Shown here in pieces: positions 13,748 through 40,000 of a stretch of 64,000 nt of DNA; positions within the stretch are counted from its first letter, which is position 1; every line of letters starts with the position of its first letter. Source of the stretch: Phoronis australis. Lineage: Eukaryota > Animalia > Phoronida. The notes beneath the pieces are model-generated. The model was not told where the DNA came from. It searched no databases and was given only the letters and a program-made list of their open reading frames with translations. The stretch lies in contig NMRA01000443.1 in the NCBI GenBank assembly GCA_002633005.1, positions 118,251 to 182,250 of the forward strand, in the 5' to 3' direction. The position numbers and the translations under genes are program-made.

Positions 13748-15439
13748 CTAATTTTTCTTTGGCGTACTAACTGGTTTGTGCTTAGCTACGCCCCGCCTCC
13801 CTAGAACTTTCTGCAACTGTTTTTGTTTCGTATGAACGGGTGTACTCGGCCTAGAGATTCTACTTGCGCGTCCCTCATTATCGATAGTACCCTCTCTGAA
13901 TGTCACAGACTTCCGGCTAGGAGTTACACTGCGCAACTCCGTTCGAAATGTTGCAAATGAACTCGGTGAACCTCGTGAAAACTCGTCATCATCCGGGAGC
14001 CCAGTACCTTCTTCCGGTTCGTCTTCATCGTCGTCTATTTTGAAAGTAACACTTCTGCGACCGGACATCGCACTTACACTTCGTGGACCGGGAGTGCCAG
14101 GCCTGGATCGTGACGGTGTCGGAGTTCTACCACCTGGACCCGGCGTTCCCGGTCGAGGTGTAGCACTTCTGCGCTCCATAGTTGGCTCAGGAGTGTCTGT
14201 TCCGTCATCGAAGAACGTCACTGATTTGCGAGAAGGTGTAACACTCCTTCTCATAGCCGATGGCGGTTTTTCATGGCTAAAGAATATCGGACCCCTACTT
14301 TGGGGCCTACCTATGTCCAGATCACTGTTATTTATGGCATCATTGTTATTGTTCTCATCGCTGGCTTCGTTCTGTGTTTCTTTTTGGTCACTATTTTCAC
14401 CACCGATTCCACTGTCGTCTGATACGGCAGTTTCAAGCACGTTCCCTGGTGTCGCCGGACGAGCGCTTATTGGTCGCGATTTCCCCGGACGCGCGCTGCC
14501 AGGACGGGCACTTGTTGGTCGACCTCCGCTGACAGGCCGTGCAACTGCAGTAGTCGGACGCGATATTGTCACTCTCTTTCCAGTTGATGGTCGAGCAGGT
14601 TTCGTCAACGAATCCGCGTTTTTCACCTCTCCTTCTCCTGTTCCGTCGTTACTTAACTGAACACCCTGTTTGTCATCCCCTGAAGACAAGTCAGTTAGAG
14701 TAACATCCTCGCCAACTTGTATTGCTATCGATACAGTATTTGGTTTGTCCTTAGAAGTGTTCGTACCATTAGCACCACTGTACGGTGCCTTTCCTTCATT
14801 TGTTTTATTGTCTGCGAGAGTAATATCATCGCAGCTATCCTTATCATTGTCTTCTATAATTTCACACGCGACACAAGCTAGCACCAGCAGACGATACAAC
14901 TGCAGCAGAACCATAATGGCATTTTTCACAGCGAAGAAAGTGTTAGCGTAGGTGAATACTCGATAATGAGCAATTGAGACGATGCGTATGGCTAAGAATG
15001 GCAGGTCTTGCATGAATAACGACACAATAATGGCAAACTTCTCGTCGAAAATAAATCTACAACTGTCTGTCTTTAGCTTATCCTCTTGGTTATCCCAGTT
15101 ATTCGCTATTTCAACATCGACAACTTGTCGTCTGGTCGGACGTCTTCTCTTTCGCGGAGGTGTCAAGAGAAATGTGAACTGTAGTAGACTCCAGCAAAAC
15201 GCGGTCAAAACGATATAAACGAATGTCTGATCTTGTAAGATCTTTGGCTCTTTGAACAACTCGAACAATTCTAGAATATCAATGCCTGTGCAGAGGTAAA
15301 CCAATAGCAGCTGAGATAATTTTTCACGTGATATGCCTCCTTTTGGCAGTATCCATCGCCCGATGAGAAGCAAAAAAATCATAGACTGTTCCAAAGCTAA
15401 AGCCCATTCGGTAGTTCTCAGGGTTACTTCAAGGGAAAA
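13748..15439 (-). CDS. TMEM26: TMEM26-family protein, last coding exon (TM helices plus long disordered C-tail)
   Basis: Acceptor ttttttctag at 15440-15441. Encodes EWALALEQSMIFLLLIGRWILPKGGISREKLSQLLLVYLCTGIDILELF..WSLLQF..MQDLPFLAIR..FFAVKN, which are TMEM26 signature motifs. Confidence 0.9.
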   Translation of the reverse strand, partial: FSLEVTLRTTEWALALEQSMIFLLLIGRWILPKGGISREKLSQLLLVYLCTGIDILELFELFKEPKILQDQTFVYIVLTAFCWSLLQFTFLLTPPRKRRRPTRRQVVDVEIANNWDNQEDKLKTDSCRFIFDEKFAIIVSLFMQDLPFLAIRIVSIAHYRVFTYANTFFAVKNAIMVLLQLYRLLVLACVACEIIEDNDKDSCDDITLADNKTNEGKAPYSGANGTNTSKDKPNTVSIAIQVGEDVTLTDLSSGDDKQGVQLSNDGTGEGEVKNADSLTKPARPSTGKRVTISRPTTAVARPVSGGRPTSARPGSARPGKSRPISARPATPGNVLETAVSDDSGIGGENSDQKETQNEASDENNNNDAINNSDLDIGRPQSRGPIFFSHEKPPSAMRRSVTPSRKSVTFFDDGTDTPEPTMERRSATPRPGTPGPGGRTPTPSRSRPGTPGPRSVSAMSGRRSVTFKIDDDEDEPEEGTGLPDDDEFSRGSPSSFATFRTELRSVTPSRKSVTFREGTIDNEGRASRISRPSTPVHTKQKQLQKVLGRRGVAKHKPVSTPKKN

Positions 15440-25978: not shown

Positions 25979-26278
25979 TTAAAAGGCTTCACGAAGGTTG
26001 CCGATCGTCGCGTGTAATCGATACAGATTGCATAATATATGTTACGACAGCACTGGTTATTTGTCGTTCAATTATTCATGCTGAGTGTAAATTGCCCGTA
26101 TTGTCTGCTCTTGGAGATAATAATGGCGCACTGCAAAACGTACTGTACCGCCGCTGAATATTCACTTGGTCTCAGCTGGCGAAATGACAAGCCGTTTTGC
26201 TTCATGTAATTTACCTCGAGTACAGCGCTCATCTGAAAACAGTTTGAGACAAACAACTAACAAGAGAGAAAGTAGAAA

Positions 26279-26806
26279 ATGACTGAGTGGATGAAAATGA
26301 CTACATCAGAAAGTTCACAAGATTCGGTCTCTGAAACCGATGGAGAGAGTCGTCAGACGATTTGCAAAGTGAACCTAAACGTCGGCGGTCGTCGTTTTAC
26401 AATTCAACATGAGAGGTTAGTGTCAATGCCGGGTACAAAATTGTCGGATTTGTCCAAGCTAGGTGATTACTGGGACCAGGACGAGAATGAATATTACTTC
26501 GACAGAAATTCAAGTTATTTTGACAGCATCCTGGATTATTATCGAGTAAGCGAAATCCACATGTCCAAAGACACATGCGTTTCGCGTCTTCAAGAAGAAA
26601 TGGAATTTTGGGAAATCCCTCCCACTGCGCTCCTCAACTGCGTAAGAGAATGTAAATTTGCCAAGGATTGCATTCAAAGTAAATTCAAACTATCCCTCAT
26701 CAGTGAAGACAACATGACCCACGCTACTAGCGATACCCGCTGGAGAGCTTTCCAACGAAAGGCTTGGCTGTTTTTAAATCAACCATCGTCATCCAAGTAT
26801 GCAAAG
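26279..26806 (+). CDS. Voltage-gated K+ channel subunit (Shaw/Kv3-like, divergent), exon 1: T1/BTB domain
   Basis: VNLNVGGRRF..PGTKL..EYYFDRN..F..ILDYYR..H.....C...EEMEFW..WLFLNQPSSSKYAK, followed by a GTAGGT donor in phase 0. Confidence 0.9.
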
Positions 26807-27841
26807 GTAGGTAATTTGAAAACACCGTTTATGGTCGGGTGATAAAACACATAGCTCTGCATTCGAAAAGCTTTTCGTAACAATTATGAAGGTAGAACAC
26901 TATTCCATATTTTTGGAGACGTTTGTTGGACAAAACTGCCAAAGACAAAATTAACTGGTTAGTTGTTTATCATACTGATACTGGAAAGTTTCTGTGGTCA
27001 CCAACATGACCATTCATACCACGTGTCAAAATTGTGCTACGAAAACCAAACCACTGATATAGAGTTTTAGGTATTTCTAATATAATCGACCAATTCGATG
27101 TACGAATTCAATAGCCTGCAGGTCGTGTATCTCTGTCTTACTCAATGTGAACAACGTTAACCATGAATCAGCTTTTCAAATAACACAAAATATTTCCACT
27201 CCGTGATAGAAATAAAAATAATTTCAAGTCAACAATATGTTAATCAAACATCAGCAACTGACTGCCAAAAACACTGCTACGATTGGCAAACCACGGCTCG
27301 CGGCAAAATTTGACCTGTTTAAACCAATCACAGAATGTTCTCTAGTTTCCTTTTGGAGGCAGAAATCAATTTCTATTGCAAGAAAAAGTTTTAGGCCAGT
27401 TTCTTAAAGATAATCAGATTACTTTATTCTTTTCTGCAGCTGTTTCGGCTGTAGGCTGGGAGGAAAGGCTGTCCAGACTGAGAGATACTTTTATGTTAAC
27501 GATTTGACCCTTATACACGGATGCGCTCCGCAAACGCAAGACTGTCCACACAGCACGAGCGGATAATAGTCTATTAAAATAGGTGGCAATAGCATGTGTA
27601 GTCACTGAAGTATCTAGATATTCACTGCATCCATTCTGTGTTATGAAGGTTACGCAAGACCACGTAAAACCACTCCAGTGAAAAGCGAGTATTTCGCAAA
27701 ATACCCTCGTGAGCAGACGTGACCTTACTCCAGCGGCGGATCTAGGATACCATAAGGGGGGGCCCAACACTTTGTCTCGGGCAATCGCGTAAACCACGAC
27801 TGCATGCGCGCAACCAGCCGGAAATGAAGGAGGGCTTGGAC

Positions 27842-30800
27842 TGTTGAAATAAATCACTTTTGGTTGCAAAAAAAGAAAACCGCAACACGTGGTGAGAATG
27901 ACCCAATCTATTGTCAAAAAAAAAACTAACTACAACGAAACAACTAATCGTACTAATGCGGTCGATGTAACGTAGAAGGAACTTAAACTAATAAATGATT
28001 TTCAACACTCCTCCTCAGTTGTTAGTGTTTAAGTTCAATCATAACTAATAAAAGACTTTCTCAAAGTCCTCAATACAGGTATGATAAAGTATTCACTAGA
28101 CGTTGACTAATAAATGCCAACACTCCTCACTTATGTTAACCGTTGAGCAACTAACAAACTAATGTTTAACTAACACCTGCCATGGCCCTGAGTTTTTCAA
28201 ATGTTTCTCTTGGCAATGGCTTCGTCAACATGTCTGCTATCATTAGTGCACTGCAACAATACTTTAAGTCAATAGAACCAGTGCTGACCAGATCACGGAT
28301 AAAGTGATGTTTGATTTTAATATGTTTGGCACGACCATGAAATTTTTGATTGTGACACATTGATATGGCTGCCTGGTTATCCTCAAAAATAGTTACCGGT
28401 TTTTTGAATTCCACTCAACTCGAGCACAAGTTTGGAAAGCCACATGGCTTCTTGCGCAGCCATCCCCAAGGCAACATACTCCGCTTCAGCTGATGACAGA
28501 GCAACACATGATTGACGTTTGCTTCTCCAGCTGACAACTGATCCAGTCACATAAAAAATATATCCAGATGTCGAATACGATATCTCCTCTCCAGTCGGAG
28601 TCGGAATATCTAACACAGTCCGAGAGCTCACTACTTGGAAATCGCAATCCGAAATGAACCGTTCCTTTCAAGTATCGCATTTTCCGCTTAACAGCAGACC
28701 AGTGCTGTTCGGTCGGTTTCGAGCAGAACTGAGAAACACGACTCACTGCAAATGCTATATCTGGCCTTGTCCACTGACTCAGATATAGTAAACTTCCAAC
28801 AGCAGACTGATATAATTCCTGATCAAAAGTAGCAACATCATTTGGTTCANTGTATTCGTCAAACACAACATCACGAGTAAGAATGACTCAATCACGAGTT
28901 ATATCATACACACGATATGCCTTACTATCAGGTGCATAACCCAGAAAGATGGTCTTCCTAGATTTTGAATCAAACTTTGAACGTTCGTCCTTAGGGATAT
29001 GTGCATATGCTCTGCAGCCAAAAACACGTAGAGTATCAACTCTCGGTTTCTCGCCCATCAAGGCCTCAAATGGAGTTTGACCTTTTACTGCCCTCGTAGG
29101 ACTTCGGTTTTGCAAATAGGTAGCAGTGGAGACTGCCTCTGCCCAAAATTTCTGGGGCAAAAGCGATTCAGCAAGCATTGAGCGTGCAGTTTCGACAAGG
29201 GTGCGATTCATTCTTTCGGCAACTCCGTTTTGCTCTGGTGTCTTCGGAACAGTTACTTGGAGTCTGATTCCCTCTCGTCTGAGGTACTGTTCAAATTGCT
29301 TTGAAATGTACTCTCCTCCATTGTCAGATCTGAGAGTTCTGAGTTTCTGACCAGTAAGATTCTCAGCCATAGACTTCCATTCTAAAAAGGTATCGAATAC
29401 CTGATCCTTACGCTTGATGAAGTACACCCAAGTATACCGGGAATAATCGTCGACAAATGATAGAAAGTATTCACAGCCACTGAGGGAAGCTGTGCTCACT
29501 TTACCATAAACATCAGTGTGCACGAGTCCCAGAGGAACATTGCTACGATGGGCCTTGCCTTCTGGAAAGCTGGCTCTGTGCAGTTTACCTTGAACACAAG
29601 GCTCACAAACTCCCAGTTCACAATCCGACTTACAGTCAAGTCCAATTGTCATCTTACTGCGTATCAATTGTTTCAAACTTTGGCCACCTAAATGTCCAAA
29701 ACGACGATGCCACAACTCAAACTGTGAGTTAGTCTCTGCTACTGACACACACTCAGTCACGGGATTTACATTTAAGTAATACAGGCCATCGACTTTACGG
29801 CCTTTTGCAACTGCTTTACCAACATCATTCATAATGTTACATTCAGTATCAGTAAATTCTATGGTGCCAAGTTTGCTGGTAGCTTGTGAAACGCTTAACA
29901 AACTGAATGACAGGCCTGGTACAAACAGAACATTTTCTAACACGCATTTTGTGTTATTCCCGTTCAGGGAATCAAGTTCGAGTTCAACCGCTCCTTGGCC
30001 GGTTCCTTTTAAAACACGTCCATCCTCAAGCGTTACGTTTCTACTGTCCTGAAGCTCCGTAAACTCGGTATATTTTGCTCTGTCGTTGCACATGTGATGC
30101 TCCCGAGTCTATGATCCATTCATGAGTAGACCTTGCATTAGTAAGCTTTGCATTGATCAGCAAGCCAACAGACACCTCACTGTCACTGTCCTTAGTCGCA
30201 GTGTTGGCTGTATCGGCTTTGTATTTTGTATCACTGCCATCTTTGTTTGGACAATTACGTTTTATGTGACCATACAATTTACATCCATAACACTGAGGAC
30301 CCTTGTTTGACCTAGTCTTTTCCCGAGCGACAAGTGCTTCCCCGGCTGACTGTTCGCTAAGTTTCCGCTCCTCGTGTAATAAACGCTCAGTCACTAATTC
30401 CATCCTAGGCACCTCCTCGCAAGCTTCCAATGCTGTAACCAACACAGCATACATATCGGGAAGACTTGGAAGAAGATGCACAACACGATCTTCATCGTTT
30501 ACTGGATCGCCAATAACTGGAAGTTCATTAAAAACCTCAGTCATGGATTTGATATGAGCACTGACGTCATCACCTGCATTTAACTTCAATGAATATATAG
30601 TTTCTTACGTAAATGCAGCTTATTTGCCCAAGTTTTCCTTTGAAACTGGTTCTGCAATTTCTGCCACACTTCACAGGGATCCACCGGGTCTCCTAGTATG
30701 TACAACAAACTAGTGTCCACTGAGAGAACTATGGTAGCAAGTGCTTTGTCCCTTCTCACATTGTATTTCTCGAGTTTTGAAGCATCATCTCCCGAAAGAG

Positions 30801-32651: not shown

Positions 32652-32819
32652 CACTCAGTTCCATGAATACAGAGCCACGTGATAGTCAATCTCTCGCACT
32701 ACATGCATACTCTATGATCCTGGGTAATTCGGATATTAATTAAGACTACGGAAATATCTCAGGTGTTCCAGACGCGTTTGTGACATAACGATGCTTCATC
32801 ACAGTCCATTCCGTTGCAG

Positions 32820-33707
32820 GTACCTCTCATTTTGTACACTGTAGCTGGGTTCATATCTGCGTGCACACACATCCTGTCTACGTGCTCCGATCTGCGCATG
32901 AGCTTCAGAGAAAATGAAATCGAATTCATCAATTCCACCTTTAAAAACATATTCGCGGACAGTCCGAAGATGAAGCAATTCTATATCACCGGCACTCATC
33001 CTGCGTTGCACGTTACTGATTTGATCACGTTGATGTACTTCACATTCGATCTCGTTGCTAGGATTTTGTGCTGTCCGTCAATCAAAGAATTCAGATCGAA
33101 TCATAACAACGTTCTGGATGTGATATGTCTCGTTGTCGGATGGATTCAGTTCTCATGCATAACAATGTACGCAGAGGCTGTCACCAGTTTACGGAAATTG
33201 TCAACAACAACGTACCAGGTCGTCATTAATCTGATTATGATTATGAAAACCCTTGCCATCCTTCGAATATCGAGATTCGTCCGTTTCATCTCGACAACCA
33301 TGACAGGAAAAGCAATCTGGCTAACTTTAAAATCCTGTTGGAAAGTCACTTTGTGTCTTTTAATATATTTAGTGAGCCTTTCCTACGTGTTTGGAAGTTT
33401 GGCGTACACGTGCGAACTCAGCGACCCGTACAATATGCCAAGTATACCGCACGCCATCTGGTGGGCACTCATCACCATGACGACCGTTGGATATGGTGAC
33501 GAAGTACCGAAAACAGTCTTAGGGAAAGTGGTCGGTGGTTTTTGTGCAATGACTGGAATCGTTTCTACGGCACTTGTCGTAGCCGTTGTCAGTGAAAAAT
33601 TCTCCACTACCTTAGAGAATCTGAATAGAGAACAAACCCAAATATCTTCGGCCAGGCGGAACACCCTAATTCGCTTGTGCAGCGCTTTAAGAAGTACGAG
33701 AATGTAA
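32820..33707 (+). CDS. Voltage-gated K+ channel subunit, exon 2: S1-S6 and pore
   Basis: Acceptor ccgttgcag (32818-32819), phase 0. S4 KTLAILRISRFVRF, pore SIPHAIWWALITMTTVGYGD, S6 GIVSTALVVAVVSEKF. The spliced protein is about 471 aa. Confidence 0.92.
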   Translation, partial: VPLILYTVAGFISACTHILSTCSDLRMSFRENEIEFINSTFKNIFADSPKMKQFYITGTHPALHVTDLITLMYFTFDLVARILCCPSIKEFRSNHNNVLDVICLVVGWIQFSCITMYAEAVTSLRKLSTTTYQVVINLIMIMKTLAILRISRFVRFISTTMTGKAIWLTLKSCWKVTLCLLIYLVSLSYVFGSLAYTCELSDPYNMPSIPHAIWWALITMTTVGYGDEVPKTVLGKVVGGFCAMTGIVSTALVVAVVSEKFSTTLENLNREQTQISSARRNTLIRLCSALRSTRM

Positions 33708-34009
33708 GGTTATGCAAGTCATTTCGTTTGTCTATTTATGGGTCTGTTGACGTCAGCGATCATGAAGGTGTTAGTACATACCTATTTACAAAGAATAGTT
33801 TATTTTAGCATTTTCAAATATCTAAAAAGATTTAAAGTAGCACTTCCTTTCATTTTAATTACTGATCAGTCGCTAAAGAGTCGTTAAATATGCTAGGCAT
33901 GCGAATCAAACTGCTACCGTAGGCCCTATATGAGCACCTTTCGGTCCATGCGCCTATATTTAAAGCTTCAACCGTATCAGAAATCAAGCGCATGCTCCTA
34001 TACGCAAAG

Positions 34010-34130
34010 CACGAGGTAATCTGGCCTATTGGGATATGTCGGCCTCCTTTACTAAAGGTCGTGGGTTCGGGTCCCACTGGGGTACACTGACAGACACTTG
34101 AATCAGGATTCTAGCTCCTCAGTTCAGTTC
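34010..34130 (+). mobile_element. tRNA-derived SINE head
   Basis: A box TGGCCTATTGG and B box GGTTCGGGTCC, followed by CTTGAATCAGG, similar to the SINE near 59300-59503. Confidence 0.5.
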
Positions 34131-34569
34131 CAACTACATATTAATAAAGCATGAAATTGGTCCCAGGTGATCAGTACAATGGGCCTACCACAGCTGTTCA
34201 CCGCAACACATTTAGTTAAAGCAAGGTTATGTAATCACTTATGGCTCTTTGCCTAGGCTAACAGGGCGACATCTGTTGGATCAGTTTTTACTATAACATA
34301 CCCAAGTTGGTTCAAAGGTCTTCTGCATTTAATATTGAGACAACTTGACACTGCAGACTTAATTGAATTATAGCCAAAGCATACAATAACATTCCTGGCT
34401 GGTCCAGTCCAAAATATATCGGGGGTTAAGATTGAAATATGATGTTGAAAGTGAACAACAGACTCTTGCATCAAAAATAGTTACGCCATTTCAAACGTAA
34501 TTTTTTCATATAAAAAAGTTTTTTTAGATAATCTGTTGTTATACAACAAAAATATTATATTTTTTCCAC

Positions 34570-35803
34570 TAGTTTAAATAAAAATGAAAGCGCTCCGAGG
34601 AGCGAAACGTGGCGAAATTAACCAAAAAGATGACGATAAAGATGATGACGATGATGACGAATATGACGACGATGGTGGCGAGGATGAACAAAAGAAGTAA
34701 TAATAACATACACATGACGAACGTAGAAGTCCGAAAGCAGTATGAAAAAGGCTACAGTCTTGAGCGACACTTGGCGAAATTAACGGAAAAGACAACGACG
34801 GAGATGATGACGAAGATGATGACGATGATGACGAATACGATGATGGTGGTGGCGATGATGAACAACATCACAACAGTCATATGACGAACTTAGATGTCAT
34901 AAATCAATAAGAAATAGTCTACAGTCTAGTTCAATAGAAGATAAACCAACATCAATGCAGCAAGAGCGCTCAACAAAGGAACAGCGTTATCATAAAATCT
35001 CAAATAACTCAAAAAGTAGACGTCCTAGCGAAAAATGGAAAACATCTCCTGAAAGCCCGTTCAAAATTCTACCTAAACTGATGATATCGCCTAATTCCGT
35101 AAATTTTTCGAACAAAATGAAATTTTGCGTTTTTTTTAAAGAAATTCAAAGTCAAATAACTCGAAAACGGTAAGTCTGAGAAAAAATTGTTACAGACCAT
35201 TTGAAAGAATATACTTCAAAGAATCCACATGCAAAAAATCACGTCTTTTTCTCTTCCCGTTTAAAATCGCACTCCAGCACGGCTGAAAATGGGTCAACAT
35301 GCGCCAGATCCGCCATCTTGAAAGCAACTTCTGGTTTTTTGGCTTTGTATAATAGCATGTCATAAGAAACTAATACCTGTAAAAATTCGAAGGAATTGGT
35401 CATATAATGCGCCTTCTACAGGAGAAAACGTTTTTAGGCCAAAATCGAGGTGCGCATGCGCGGTCGCCGATATTTCCGCCATATTTAACCGGAAGTGAAC
35501 AATTTCCGAGATACTTGTAGCAAACTTCCGGTCCATTTACTGTGCCTATTCTTAGCCTTTTACGTAAAAAATTGTAGCCTCCAGAAGCATTTGAACCTTT
35601 AAATGAAAAAAATAGCCGTCACAGCCGCCATCTTGGATCCGATTTTGACGAAAAACAATAGGCTTGCAGTACTTCCGGAAGTACGTGTTATGTGTAAATT
35701 TCGTGATGATCGGACGAAAATTGCGACCTGTATCGTGCGACCAAACAAAAAAAAACTTAGTGGAAGAGCAACATATTTGGCGAAATTTATTTCGCCAAGT
35801 AAT
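34570..35803 (+). mobile_element. Helentron/HINE-like element nested in the Chapaev element, with a 162-bp (GAT)n-containing tandem dimer
   Basis: TGGCGAAATT at about 34610 and 34772 (162-bp period with GAT/GAC microsatellite) recurs in the terminal hairpin TTGGCGAAAT-TT-ATTTCGCCAA near 35777-35798. Internal blocks CCGCCATCTTG are repeated. Confidence 0.55.
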
Positions 35804-36069
35804 CACTTAGTTGGCATATGTCAAATTAGTATGGTAGAGCATCTTTTCCCCCTGTTTCCCCCCTACATTTGCAGTTCAACTCTCCTAAAATCCAGTTACT
35901 GAAACAGGATGTCACTCTGCTTTTATTTACTATCCAAAGAGACAAATAGCAAATGAACTTTACACTACAGTATTAGACAGTAACAAAATGTATAGGATTT
36001 GTTTCTATCTCTACACATAGGATTTGTGTACACTAACTGAGGTCAGAGCAAGAAGGTGAGTCCAGTTGA

Positions 36070-36245
36070 CCAGTGATTGTAATTTGTTCTGAGTTCCGGT
36101 GAATTCTTTGTCCAGTGTTTTTTCATCACTGAAGTAACTGAGAGTAATGGGTTCCTAATTCCCACAAATGTAATTTTAAATGTGTTGAATGTCAGTTTTA
36201 TGGATGGATTCCCCTCCTTGCTCTCCAAGTAGTCCTAACCCAAAT
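36070..36245 (-). pseudogene. Chapaev transposase C-terminal catalytic fragment
   Basis: FGLGLLGEQGGESIHK, then after a frameshift TFNTFKITFVGIRNPLLSVTSVMKKHWTKNSP. This matches the G.G..GEQG.ESIH..FN motif that carries the third (E) DDE residue. Confidence 0.75.
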
Positions 36246-36829
36246 CAGGTTTCTCTCAAAGAGGATATGACATGATTCACGAGTCAGTGCTGCTAAAATG
36301 CGAGAATCAGAGAATGCACACCTATAATATTTCAAGTATTCTCGGATACATAAGTGAGCATTGTCTATTTCTTATTCGACATGTAATTACTAGGTCAGAG
36401 GCTTTTATGAACACTAGAATACAGTCTGGTCAGTTTGGAGAATTTAGTACTGATTGCCACTGCTTTGTTTATCATACACATGTCTCTCGTCAGTGCTTGT
36501 GTTATGTTCACACTTGAATTCGATTCAGTTATGTACGTGTTGCAGTGATTACCAATTAGTGATTTACCGTGATGGACTTGTCTATGTATTGTAAGTTGCT
36601 TTAACGACTGAAGATGTTTAGTTAAATGACCTTCTCCATACGATAAAATACTATTTGGATATTCCCCTTCTAACTGCGCTTTAAGTTCAGGTAATTTTTA
36701 CTGAATATGAAGTTTTCTAGTGTTATTCCGAGCTAACCGTGCAAAAGAGAATTACCTCCTCACCGACGTCTAATCGCTCGAACTCATTCTCCAGGTTACT
36801 AATTTACCTCCTTAAGTATATTTATTTTT

Positions 36830-37091
36830 TCAGGCGTTTGACATGCAACTTGTATAAACTGGTCTCCGTTTAGCACTGGCAATTGAATGATAACATTTAG
36901 AACAAAAGTATTGTGAAAGCGGTTTAGGGTCATCCGAGCGAACATCTATTCCAAAATGAAAAGCATTAGGATCAATGTATTTACTGCATAAAACATTTTT
37001 TTTACCTTTTGAGTAACATAAGTTGCAAAGACAGATACGGCAGAGGTAAAGAAATGCTTTGTTTGTGAAAACCGTCATGCATGTCTGACAT
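36830..37091 (-). pseudogene. RAG1 N-terminal-like (Chapa) Zn-binding domain fragment
   Basis: MSDMHDGFHKQ, frameshift, then AFLYLCRIC..FHFGIDVRSDDPKPLSQYFCSKCYHSI. This resembles RAG1 non-core [34 protein letters not shown]. Confidence 0.75.
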
Positions 37092-40000
37092 TTTTTATGA
37101 AACTAACCATGTTACAGTCCTGGTAAGTTCCTTAATAGGACTGCAACATGATTATTTGCTTAAAAGTAAAATGCTGGCAACTATAACACCAAAATCAGAC
37201 CAAAGTAGTCCTGAAAAGTCATAAGGAAAAACACAATTCTATAACAACTGATGTCCCAAATCGCATAAAAAATCAGTACGAACTACTTCAAATTTTGGAA
37301 AATTCTGACATGCCAACTTGACAAAATACACCATCACATGAAATTAACATTAGCAATTTAAAACATGTTAATCATTTTTCAATCAAAACTTCCAAAAGTT
37401 TTAAATTATTTGTCTAATTAACCTCACTTCCTGAACCTATAGATTGACTACCTTCCATAAAATCTCTTTGGAAACTAATTTAATGAGACTAACTGGAATG
37501 CAATCACTCCTACACATTCTTGAGTAATTTATTTATTTATGAACTTGTGTAAGATCACATTTTAATTGCTTCAGACTGTTTTTTAAGAGAGTTCAAAATC
37601 AAGTAAAATCAAGTCTAAAACCCAAGCTGCTAAGCAAGTGTCTGTTCAGTGGCTCTAGCGAGTGATTACGTAACACCTCACTGAACTAAATGTTACTGTT
37701 CTGGGTATTCTAACCAGCTGTGAAGTGTCTGTTCAATGGCTGTGGCGAGTGATTACATAACACCTCACTGAACTAAATGTTACTGTTCTGGGTATTCTAA
37801 CCAGCTGTGCCACCTGAGTAGCTTGTGCACGTCTGCAATTATCTTATACGCAAACCGTTTGAGTGAAACCATGCTTGACGCTCCGGATGAAAACACTTCC
37901 GATTTGCTTTTTTTTACAAATGCACTCTCAGCTACTTGGCCTAGAGAACACCTGAGTGAAGAACCTTGTGAATAGCTCGCCTAAACGTACAACGCCGCTC
38001 ATGTTAGTCATTAGAAGGAGAGCTGTGACACAGCAGAAAATATCTTGAAAACCTGAAACCGCTTTAATCGTCGTCCAATCGATTTTCTAGTGCATACTTG
38101 TGGTTGGACAATGCTTGTCGAGAGGAGCGGGACTAGTTGTTTCAATGGAGGGGGGGGGGCTTCAAACGAAGTTTCAGTGCAATACTTTACCACGTACGTG
38201 GTATGCGAAGTCAACGCAAGCCAAGCCACACAGATCAATATTTAGCTTTTGTCTCTCATCATCCCATGGAGCAGATGTATAGTGCTATTCGCACTGTTTA
38301 ACGGAGTTGAGAGTGCATAGTTACAGACCCTGTTGAGAACGAAGAAAAGTTACATTCAAGTCGTGCTCTTACAAAATGTGGCTATCAGAAAACAGACTAC
38401 CATTTTCTGGTTCCGTACGTAAAAGGTGTGCCTGGGAAGATGCTTCGAATCCGTAGTCGTTTGGGCTCTAGAGTAGCACACAAACCAGGCAAAACATAGA
38501 TGCACATGATGGTACATTCTATGGACAAAGAACAGAAAGACTGCATTCAATACCAAGTTAATGGTGTATTTTTTGGTATTCAATGTGAGGGAGAACGTGT
38601 CCAGTACCCATGGTAGTGAAACTCAACGACCCCTCAAGAAACGCATGTAACAACAAGAAAAATAACTACTGGGGAAGACATTTCAGGTTACGGTACGACC
38701 ATTTCCATGACTCGTGACATGAGTTCGGCAATGAAAACGTTCAATTGGCACTGAAAACTCGTGTAGAGAAAAGAACTGGTTTGAGAGAGGAGTACTGGAG
38801 GCTATACATGCAAGCCTCCAAGACACTAGGTGGCGCCAGATACAAACTGTCCTCAGCATGGAACGAGAGTGTTGACAGAACTACAAGACAAACAAGTTCC
38901 CACGTGACCAGAGTTCCCGCCACTAGGACTTTACATCAACCCAACGAAGGAGAGGATAGGTCTCCGAGGTACTAGGAATATAGGCAAATATTCAGTCCAG
39001 TAGAGAAGTCTTATTATCAGTGTATAGACTAATACAACAGTAATGAATTACATTAAAAATCAATTCGTTGTATGTGGACATTTTTGTCGAATACTACAAT
39101 AAACTGTTTTACGGGTACATTTATGAATAGCATAACACTGAGAAAACACCATTTATGATGTCAATATGTTCTATGAGGACGTTTCTTGTCCACCACAAAA
39201 TAACATTATTCTTCATATTCTCTGTTGTATATAGGAATTTTTTGTCCAATATGACAGTGACAATTATATTCTTTCTACTGGATTTTTATGCAACTGAATA
39301 ATAAGTGGTATAATTATGGAAATTTAATTCCTTCAACGTAACAGAAAAATCCCGATCATATCAATTATCAATTGTGGTATACAAACATTTTTGTTGTACA
39401 CCAAAAACTAAGTCTTTAGATGAACTGACTCCACGTGGAAATATTTATCCAATATACTTTACAGTAAATATCATTAATGATCGTCATTCTGTGGCAGAAA
39501 CTGGTTCTCCAAACCAGAGATGATTGCAGCAGATGTCCCACAGCCACTGAAAACATCCAAGTCACTGATGACGTCATGAATGAAATGCTGAAAAAAGGGC
39601 AGCCATTGTTCCTCCGTGTTGAAATTGTACTACAGGTGGCTAGCCACAAGTCTGGTGTAACGCAACGTGACTATGGGTATGGAAACATTCCCCCATGGAA
39701 CAGCTTTTGAACTCCTGAGTAACCCGCTTTGTGCATGGACTGAGGTAACAACGAATTTCGTGAATCACAGGTGGCGTTCAGCAAGGGCTATTGCGCACAG
39801 CGGGATCAAGCGTTTACTCTTTATGCTACGTGTCAAAATATATGACGATAAGCACTGTGGGCATTTTGTTTTGCCTTCATTTGTTCAAATTTCAAAGGCA
39901 TTTGACAGAGTTTAGTCCTCAATTGCCACTACGGCCGTAGATTACTAATAGCGCCCATGGTAACGTATCCGGTACTTAAACGAGAATACCACTCAGCTAG

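Follow-up and report, generated by a model that had tools for sequence, protein, structure and literature searches.

The locus and its features

The 64,000-nucleotide stretch of Phoronis australis DNA considered here (contig NMRA01000443.1, positions 118,251 to 182,250; hereafter the window, in whose positions all coordinates are given) contains a transposon in which the same signal blocks lie at unequal distances from the two tips. The element is almost certainly an internally deleted, non-autonomous copy of Chapaev, a kind of transposon reportedly described by Kapitonov and Jurka in 2007. The transposase gene reads from right to left, which puts the end with the longer spacing (long end) on its 5' side. 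Each end contains three blocks: a heptamer (block 1), ACATTTAGTT (block 2) and GTTATGTAATCACT (block 3). The features are as follows.

34185..34188, plus strand: left half of a candidate 4-bp target duplication (3/4 match to 37810-37813)
34189..37809, minus strand: whole element, almost certainly an internally deleted Chapaev transposon (3621 bp, or 2403 bp once the nested insert is subtracted)
34189..34239, plus strand: short end, 3' of the gene, blocks 1-3; boundary and spacer length common to other copies
34583..35800, no strand given: nested 1218-bp repeat of very high copy number, absent in other copies (joint 34582-35801)
36073..36748, minus strand: remnant of the transposase C-terminal third, with stops and frameshifts (profile A1; tblastn)
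36200..36223, minus strand: EQGGESIH motif (E, Q, E and H invariant in 40/40 aligned relatives)
36836..37091, minus strand: what remains of the N-terminal zinc domain (Chapa, RAG1-NZD-like), with a frameshift close to its start
37636..37722, minus strand: inner tandem copy of the long end's terminal 87 bp (4 differences, 22-bp spacer)
37748..37809, minus strand: long end, 5' of the gene, blocks 1-3; depth drops to single-copy level outside
37810..37813, plus strand: right half of the candidate 4-bp target duplication (3/4 match to 34185-34188)

Architecture of the ends

The short end consists of CACAGCT (34189-34195), a 12-bp spacer, ACATTTAGTT (34208-34217), a further 8 bp and GTTATGTAATCACT (34226-34239). 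The long end, read on the minus strand, has the same order: CACAGCT (37809-37803), a 22-bp spacer, ACATTTAGTT (37780-37771), 9 bp and GTTATGTAATCACT (37761-37748). The original prediction had given these end coordinates, the 12/22 spacers and the second shared block 8 and 9 bp further in, and all are exact. The exact blocks common to both ends measure 8, 10 and 14 bp and are offset by 0, 10 and 11 bp. With the 8-bp terminal identity CACAGCTG, the spacers are 12/22 bp counted after the 7-mer and 11/21 bp after the 8-mer. The blocks extend 51 bp inward at the short end and 62 bp at the long end, and the signals at the two ends differ by about one helical turn, the difference expected for a 12/23-type recombinase. 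The termini read 5'-CAC ... GTG-3', as given for Chapaev (PMC4079192; this and the other sources cited were available in part, and what is drawn from them refers to those parts), and the boundary at 34189 is confirmed in other copies.

The heptamer-gap-ACATTTAGTT pattern occurs three times in the window, once at the left end with a gap of 12 bp, once at the right end with 22 bp and once, again with 22 bp, in the tandem copy further inside, compared with 0 in each of 100 shuffles. The gapped end-to-end score of 42 is reached by 0/5000 random inverted window pairs (best 29), and two ordered exact blocks of at least 10 bp on different diagonals are found in 28 of 3,487,572 random pairs. The spacers, predicted to be unrelated, do share little sequence. 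A simple 10-bp indel between them is ruled out, since they cannot be reduced to one clean indel, and their dissimilarity suggests that the length difference has outlived sequence turnover. The 87-bp tandem unit of the long end is 95% identical, with no difference in its first 52 bp.

The doubling of these 87 bp (37636-37809) gives the long end two potential cleavage points.

Copies of the element and conservation of the spacing

Copies were examined in seven public sequencing runs, four from one sample of organism A and one from a second sample. Reads and contigs were aligned over 33700-38300 for the element and 34168-34575 for the short end; in the short-end alignment, 20 of 36 loose-end rows and 12 of 16 indel rows were examined. 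Runs X5 and X6 (shares 0.09 and 0.07) contain chiefly the nested repeat and were excluded from the evidence. Depth in X1 is 31-44 in the flanks and rises to 251-566 in those bins of the element that contain no other repeat, and the element is present in roughly ten copies, depth not being a strict copy number. Other copies join 34582 directly to 35801 (one X1 contig with a depth of 124.5, and seven X7 reads), for which reason the nested 1.2-kb segment is rejected as a part of the transposon. The same joint links the part that carries the short end with the part that carries the coding remnants and, together with the depth pattern, upholds the assignment of both ends to one element.

At the short end, other copies start at 34189 in one contig each of X1 and X2 (with the same flank), one contig of X4 and 10 reads of X7; further X2 copies start at 34190 and 34191 (one contig each). 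Together they have four left flanks, none like that of the window and two of them resembling one short repeat. Two divergent contigs running from the tip to beyond block 3 carry 12 and 16 substitutions and no spacer gap. No indel lies in the short spacer (34196-34207) among the 12 of 16 indel rows, which come from two samples, yet position 34202 is substituted in most copies (228.5/271 of X1 depth, 25/32 X7 reads); the length is therefore kept while the sequence varies. The recurrence of the 12-bp short end at other insertion sites is confirmed, and the short end is family-wide and not private to this copy.

The substitution at 34202 also creates, in most other copies, a second CACAGC (34199-34204), which lies exactly 10 bp inward of that at the tip.

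At the long end, X1 depth averages ~360 across the last 106 bp, and the unique contig of the right flank starts at 37782. If the assembly was built with 31-mers, this start would mean that another sequence has in common 21/22 bases of the spacer, the heptamer and two bases of the flank. A second insertion could account for it, as could a simple allele; with a duplication of 4 bp, the left flank of the X4 copy would yield a right flank of this kind. When the flanks of the window copy are compared, 4 bp match at 3/4 positions (chance 0.056), 5 bp at 3/5 and 3 bp at 0/3, so that no target duplication is perfect; one of 4 bp is a candidate, the duplications of Chapaev being of 3 to 4 bp.

The short/long asymmetry is very probably a design of the family. 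An accident of this copy, or ends taken from different insertions, would be a very improbable source of the offset: although the imperfect target duplication, the high-copy repeat adjoining the short end and the indirect support for the long end at independent sites would suit it, the short end recurs with other flanks, contig and reads tie it to the coding part, the remnants of the gene lie in collinear order on a single strand inside the element, and the 4-bp flanks match at three of four positions.

The repeat adjoining the short end (34020-34188) has a high copy number and resembles a short interspersed element (SINE); it stops where the transposon begins on the left and is not continued beyond the right end. 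It contains a motif that we take to be like a tRNA B-box, and an Rfam scan of the left flank returned no credible match. In the window, this repeat has a 16-bp stretch like the subterminal sequence of the right end, where most of its copies differ. The nested repeat (34583-35800) reaches an X1 depth of >100,000. Joints of head-to-tail type lead from ~35750 back to 34580, and a short hairpin lies close to the right end of the repeat, which presumably resembles a non-autonomous element of the Helitron/Helentron type.

Transposase remnants and relationship to Chapaev

The zinc-domain frame (36836-37091) matches an N-terminal profile built from 14 relatives with a score of 28.8 bits (E 6.7e-9) and is also matched by tblastn. 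Its motifs C-R-x-C and D...F-C-x2-C agree by eye with the Chapa rows of PMC4411706 (supplement 5), those of Chapaev-1/2_NV, _BF and _ACa being closest. Profile A1, made from relatives, matches 36733-36176 (102.9 bits, E 7e-32) and, after a frameshift, 36195-36073, so that the window copy covers profile positions 498-724 of 735. Nothing in the window matches the remainder of the profile, which contains both aspartate motifs and C(2)C; these motifs are present in relatives. A DDE core with C(2)C and H(3-4)H motifs is a mark of Chapaev. The second E of EQGGESIH is the putative third catalytic residue. The zinc domain and EQGGESIH motif that were predicted between the ends are thus both found, on the minus strand, but in a broken gene whose middle, about 600 central residues, is missing.

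The window fragments gave no meaningful match to Pfam or PDB sequences. With the broken frame as query, word-index protein searches were empty until a focused search found one homologue, which in turn gave 1095 relatives by phmmer at E <= 0.001. Relatives were drawn from the best 150 of these 1095 matches, and 40 long ones were aligned. A Pfam scan of the 40 found DUF1280 in 38, RING models in 3 to 5 (E <= 1) and the RAG1 N-terminal model RAG1_imp_bd in 3 (E <= 1); the DUF1280 cut-off is passed by 17/17 relatives at a stricter setting. The RAG1 core family of Pfam does not appear in the 40 relatives among the best 25 of 92 families, and the best PDB profile match to RAG1L has an E of 0.08. In a tree of 31 rows, made without named Chapaev, Transib or RAG1 sequences, the window fragment sits on a long unplaced branch. 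For the protein P0003, the ESM Atlas gives eukaryotic clusters at 0.96-0.97, and the nearest named entries are RAG1 fragments (0.89, 0.85), a lead of low recognition; its single-sequence fold has a predicted local distance difference test score (pLDDT) of 37, too low for use.

Two other memberships were rejected. Transib is rejected because a Chapa domain is present, whereas Transib transposases lack the Chapa/NZD domain (PMC4411706; bioRxiv 10.64898/2026.01.24.700457). RAGL/ProtoRAG is rejected because this deleted copy shows no convergent RAG1L and RAG2L genes between its terminal inverted repeats, and the 40 relatives no sequence-detectable RAG1 core among the best 25 of 92 Pfam families. 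In this deleted copy, the ~270 + 390 bp 3' of the transposase, nested insert aside, contain no frame >100 amino acids that could be a RAG2-like gene. The Chapa profile, the transposase profile and the model of a relative against RAG1 (below) bear out the description of the element as RAG1-related and of Chapaev type.

Ends of related families were also sought: viral contigs gave 0 loci, plasmids no match, and genome contigs one locus (L001) without a recognisable end. At 22-1705 this locus carries a Chapaev-type transposase fragment (38% to relative P0006), on a 2.9-kb contig binned in a gammaproteobacterial metagenome-assembled genome; the fragment is probably host DNA in that bin.

Predicted fold of an intact relative

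A model of the intact relative P0010 (921 amino acids; pLDDT 86.4) has RAG1 as its best Foldseek match (E 4e-15), followed by HzTransib (2.5e-7). VIA-align gives Z scores of 27.7 for RAG1, 25.8 for ProtoRAG RAG1L and 25.7 for HzTransib, and structural identity is 12-15%. In 9 of the 31 RAG1 rows among those listed, the alignment reaches P0010 residues 264-277, which line up with the beginning of the RAG1 chain (residues 392-412 in mouse, 409-413 in zebrafish). We take the mouse 392-412 region to be the nonamer-binding domain (NBD). The corresponding segment of P0010 is basic and conserved among relatives. The remaining 22 RAG1 rows, the ProtoRAG row and four HzTransib rows start at P0010 331-333 (HzTransib at 331-332). 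Intact relatives are thus predicted to have a RAG1-like fold and an NBD-like segment; in the window copy the NBD-like region is deleted.

Comparison with known systems

Chapaev elements share with the present one the CAC...GTG termini, the Chapa domain and a single gene (PMC4411706, PMC4079192), and the candidate 4-bp duplication would fit them. The present element has ends of three blocks in which the inner two are offset by 10-11 bp, a layout that goes unmentioned in the available parts of those two papers. The ends of Chapaev3 are unlike those described here, being short simple terminal inverted repeats with TWA duplications (PMC4079192, supplement 2; PMC3014272).

The 12RSS/23RSS pair of recombination signal sequences (RSSs) in V(D)J recombination has the same CAC heptamer (5/7 positions match the consensus) and is comparable in its layout, the AT-rich block of the present element lying 12 bp from the heptamer at one end and 22 bp at the other, and the RAG1 of RAG1-RAG2 has the core fold predicted for P0010 (Z 27.7). 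It differs in the nonamer, which block 2 matches at 4/9 positions, in having no third block, in not being a mobile element, and in a 12/23 rule that needs RAG2 (PMC4840297). The ends had been called RSS-like, which is right for the layout and not for the sequence.

Five Transib families (Transib5, Transib2_AG and TransibN1-N3_AG) were reported in 2005 to have RSS12/RSS23-like end pairs (PMC1131882; reviewed in PMC8355894). Elements of the Transib5 type are likewise single-gene and RAG1-related but have a 5-bp duplication, an A-rich nonamer and no Chapa domain (PMC1131882). In TransibSU, identity to the RAG1 core exceeds 30% (PMC4411706). PflRAGL-A has a 10-bp end asymmetry (PMC10629977) and ProtoRAG/BbeRAGL-B a 27/31 spacing (PMC8289069). 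Both resemble the present element in the heptamer, the unequal spacers, an inner conserved block and an NBD or NBD-like domain (predicted in the Chapaev relative), and differ in having RAG1L and RAG2L genes, a 5-bp duplication and a conserved TR2 adjoining the heptamer. The present element shows neither a RAG2L nor any conservation of the sequence adjoining the 8-mer.

In piggyBac, an unrelated superfamily with a TTAA target, shared blocks also lie at unequal distances from the tips and the asymmetry is needed in cells, with an offset that is not one helical turn (PMC7351741). By analogy, the asymmetry could matter here too, with a Chapa zinc finger, a C-terminal tail or a second transposase dimer binding the inner blocks and the likeness to 12/23 being convergent. 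Such an arrangement is decidedly unlikely. The unlike ends that piggyBac needs are read by a cysteine-rich domain (PMC7351741), and the three blocks reaching far inward (unlike a two-part RSS), the reversed polarity of the ends and the weak nonamer match would all fit; but the offset here is one turn, unlike the 35/63-bp ends of piggyBac, and the predicted segment of the intact relative both aligns to, and sits at the position of, the RAG1 NBD.

Pairing of the ends

The inner blocks are probably sites for the transposase. In the proposed mechanism, movement would be by cut-and-paste with nick-hairpin chemistry, as in RAG and Transib, and a transposase from an intact copy elsewhere would act in trans on deleted copies. 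A RAG1-like catalytic core would recognise the CAC tip, and a predicted hinged NBD-like dimer would bind the inner blocks of both ends, which the one-turn offset would keep on the same helical face. Such a dimer would favour one short and one long end. In RAG1, an NBD dimer on a flexible linker enforces 12/23 pairing (PMC10629977), and ProtoRAG favours its asymmetric end pair (PMC8289069). A short/long preference is plausible because the RAG NBD dimer pivots to fit 12/23 and ProtoRAG prefers the unlike pair.

The steps differ in strength. That the NBD-like segment of the model reads the inner blocks is about evenly balanced. A measurable preference for the short/long pair is, on present analysis, possible while leaning towards doubtful, and a strict short/long rule is unlikely, because RAG1 alone lacks one and no RAG2-like gene is seen. 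Taken whole, a RAG1-like core at the tip with a hinged NBD-like dimer on the inner blocks, favouring a short/long pair, stands slightly below an even chance. It is also improbable that Chapaev transposases alone, without RAG2, enforce a one-turn/two-turn rule through such a dimer, which would make 12/23 an inherited transposon trait predating the split of Chapaev, Transib and RAG.

Several observations weigh against a short/long preference set by an NBD-like dimer. RAG1 without RAG2 has no strong 12/23 preference (PMC4840297), and piggyBac, although unrelated, needs asymmetric ends as well (PMC7351741). The long end lies 5' of the gene here, whereas the short end is 5' in Transib5-type elements (PMC1131882) and ProtoRAG (PMC8289069). 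To the weak nonamer match may be added variation at the short end itself: one X4 contig carries 4 extra bases somewhere within 34203-34222, one X1 contig lacks 34214-34282, and block 3 is interrupted by a 4-bp insertion in 8/38 X7 reads. The recurrence of the long end is indirect, resting on the tandem copy, the depth and the assembly breakpoint. P0010 is about 28-40% identical in the matched pieces and is not this family's own enzyme; its NBD-like segment is helical, and 22 of the 31 listed RAG1 rows do not extend into the NBD region. Rows that include the NBD have a root-mean-square deviation of 6.2-9.8 A versus 3.3-5.2 A for core-only rows, as expected if the hinge angle differs.

The asymmetry may also be real and carry no pairing preference, each end being bound singly and a one-turn indel tolerated because the helical face is kept. 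This is a tentative alternative, though one to be taken seriously. Phasing by itself would explain the offsets of 10 and 11 bp, HzTransib transposes 12/12 substrates and RAG1 alone shows no strong preference (PMC4840297), many elements of the RAGL-B kind are believed not to respond to asymmetry (PMC7204232), and a RAG2-like gene is not seen in this deleted element. It accords less well with a length difference that has outlived sequence turnover, with a short spacer whose length is kept across divergent copies and with the preference of ProtoRAG for its asymmetric pair (PMC8289069).

No report of short/long ends in Chapaev was found in the available parts of the literature, and the design appears to be undescribed so far, although it may already be recorded in the Repbase Reports in which Chapaev is defined. 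The novelty put forward in the original prediction appears to hold for Chapaev and is smaller at the superfamily level, given Transib, PflRAGL-A and ProtoRAG. The origin of the 12/23 rule is debated between a Transib seed and RAGL-A (PMC8355894, PMC10629977), the evidence in these sources being confined to Transib and RAGL. Were a third and more remote lineage to have ends offset by one turn, along with the NBD-like domain predicted here, the design would reach further back. Chapaev would then also provide a single-protein system for testing whether end discrimination requires RAG2. If there is no preference, helical phasing alone can give 12/23-like spacing, which would weaken arguments from spacer numbers.

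Other features of the window

Frames on the plus strand at 26276-26842 and 32784-33707 presumably resemble the BTB and pore exons of a voltage-gated potassium channel. On the minus strand, the frame at 13748-15439 is taken to be like a TMEM26-like protein, and that at 28888-30604 like a remnant of a copia-type retrotransposon.

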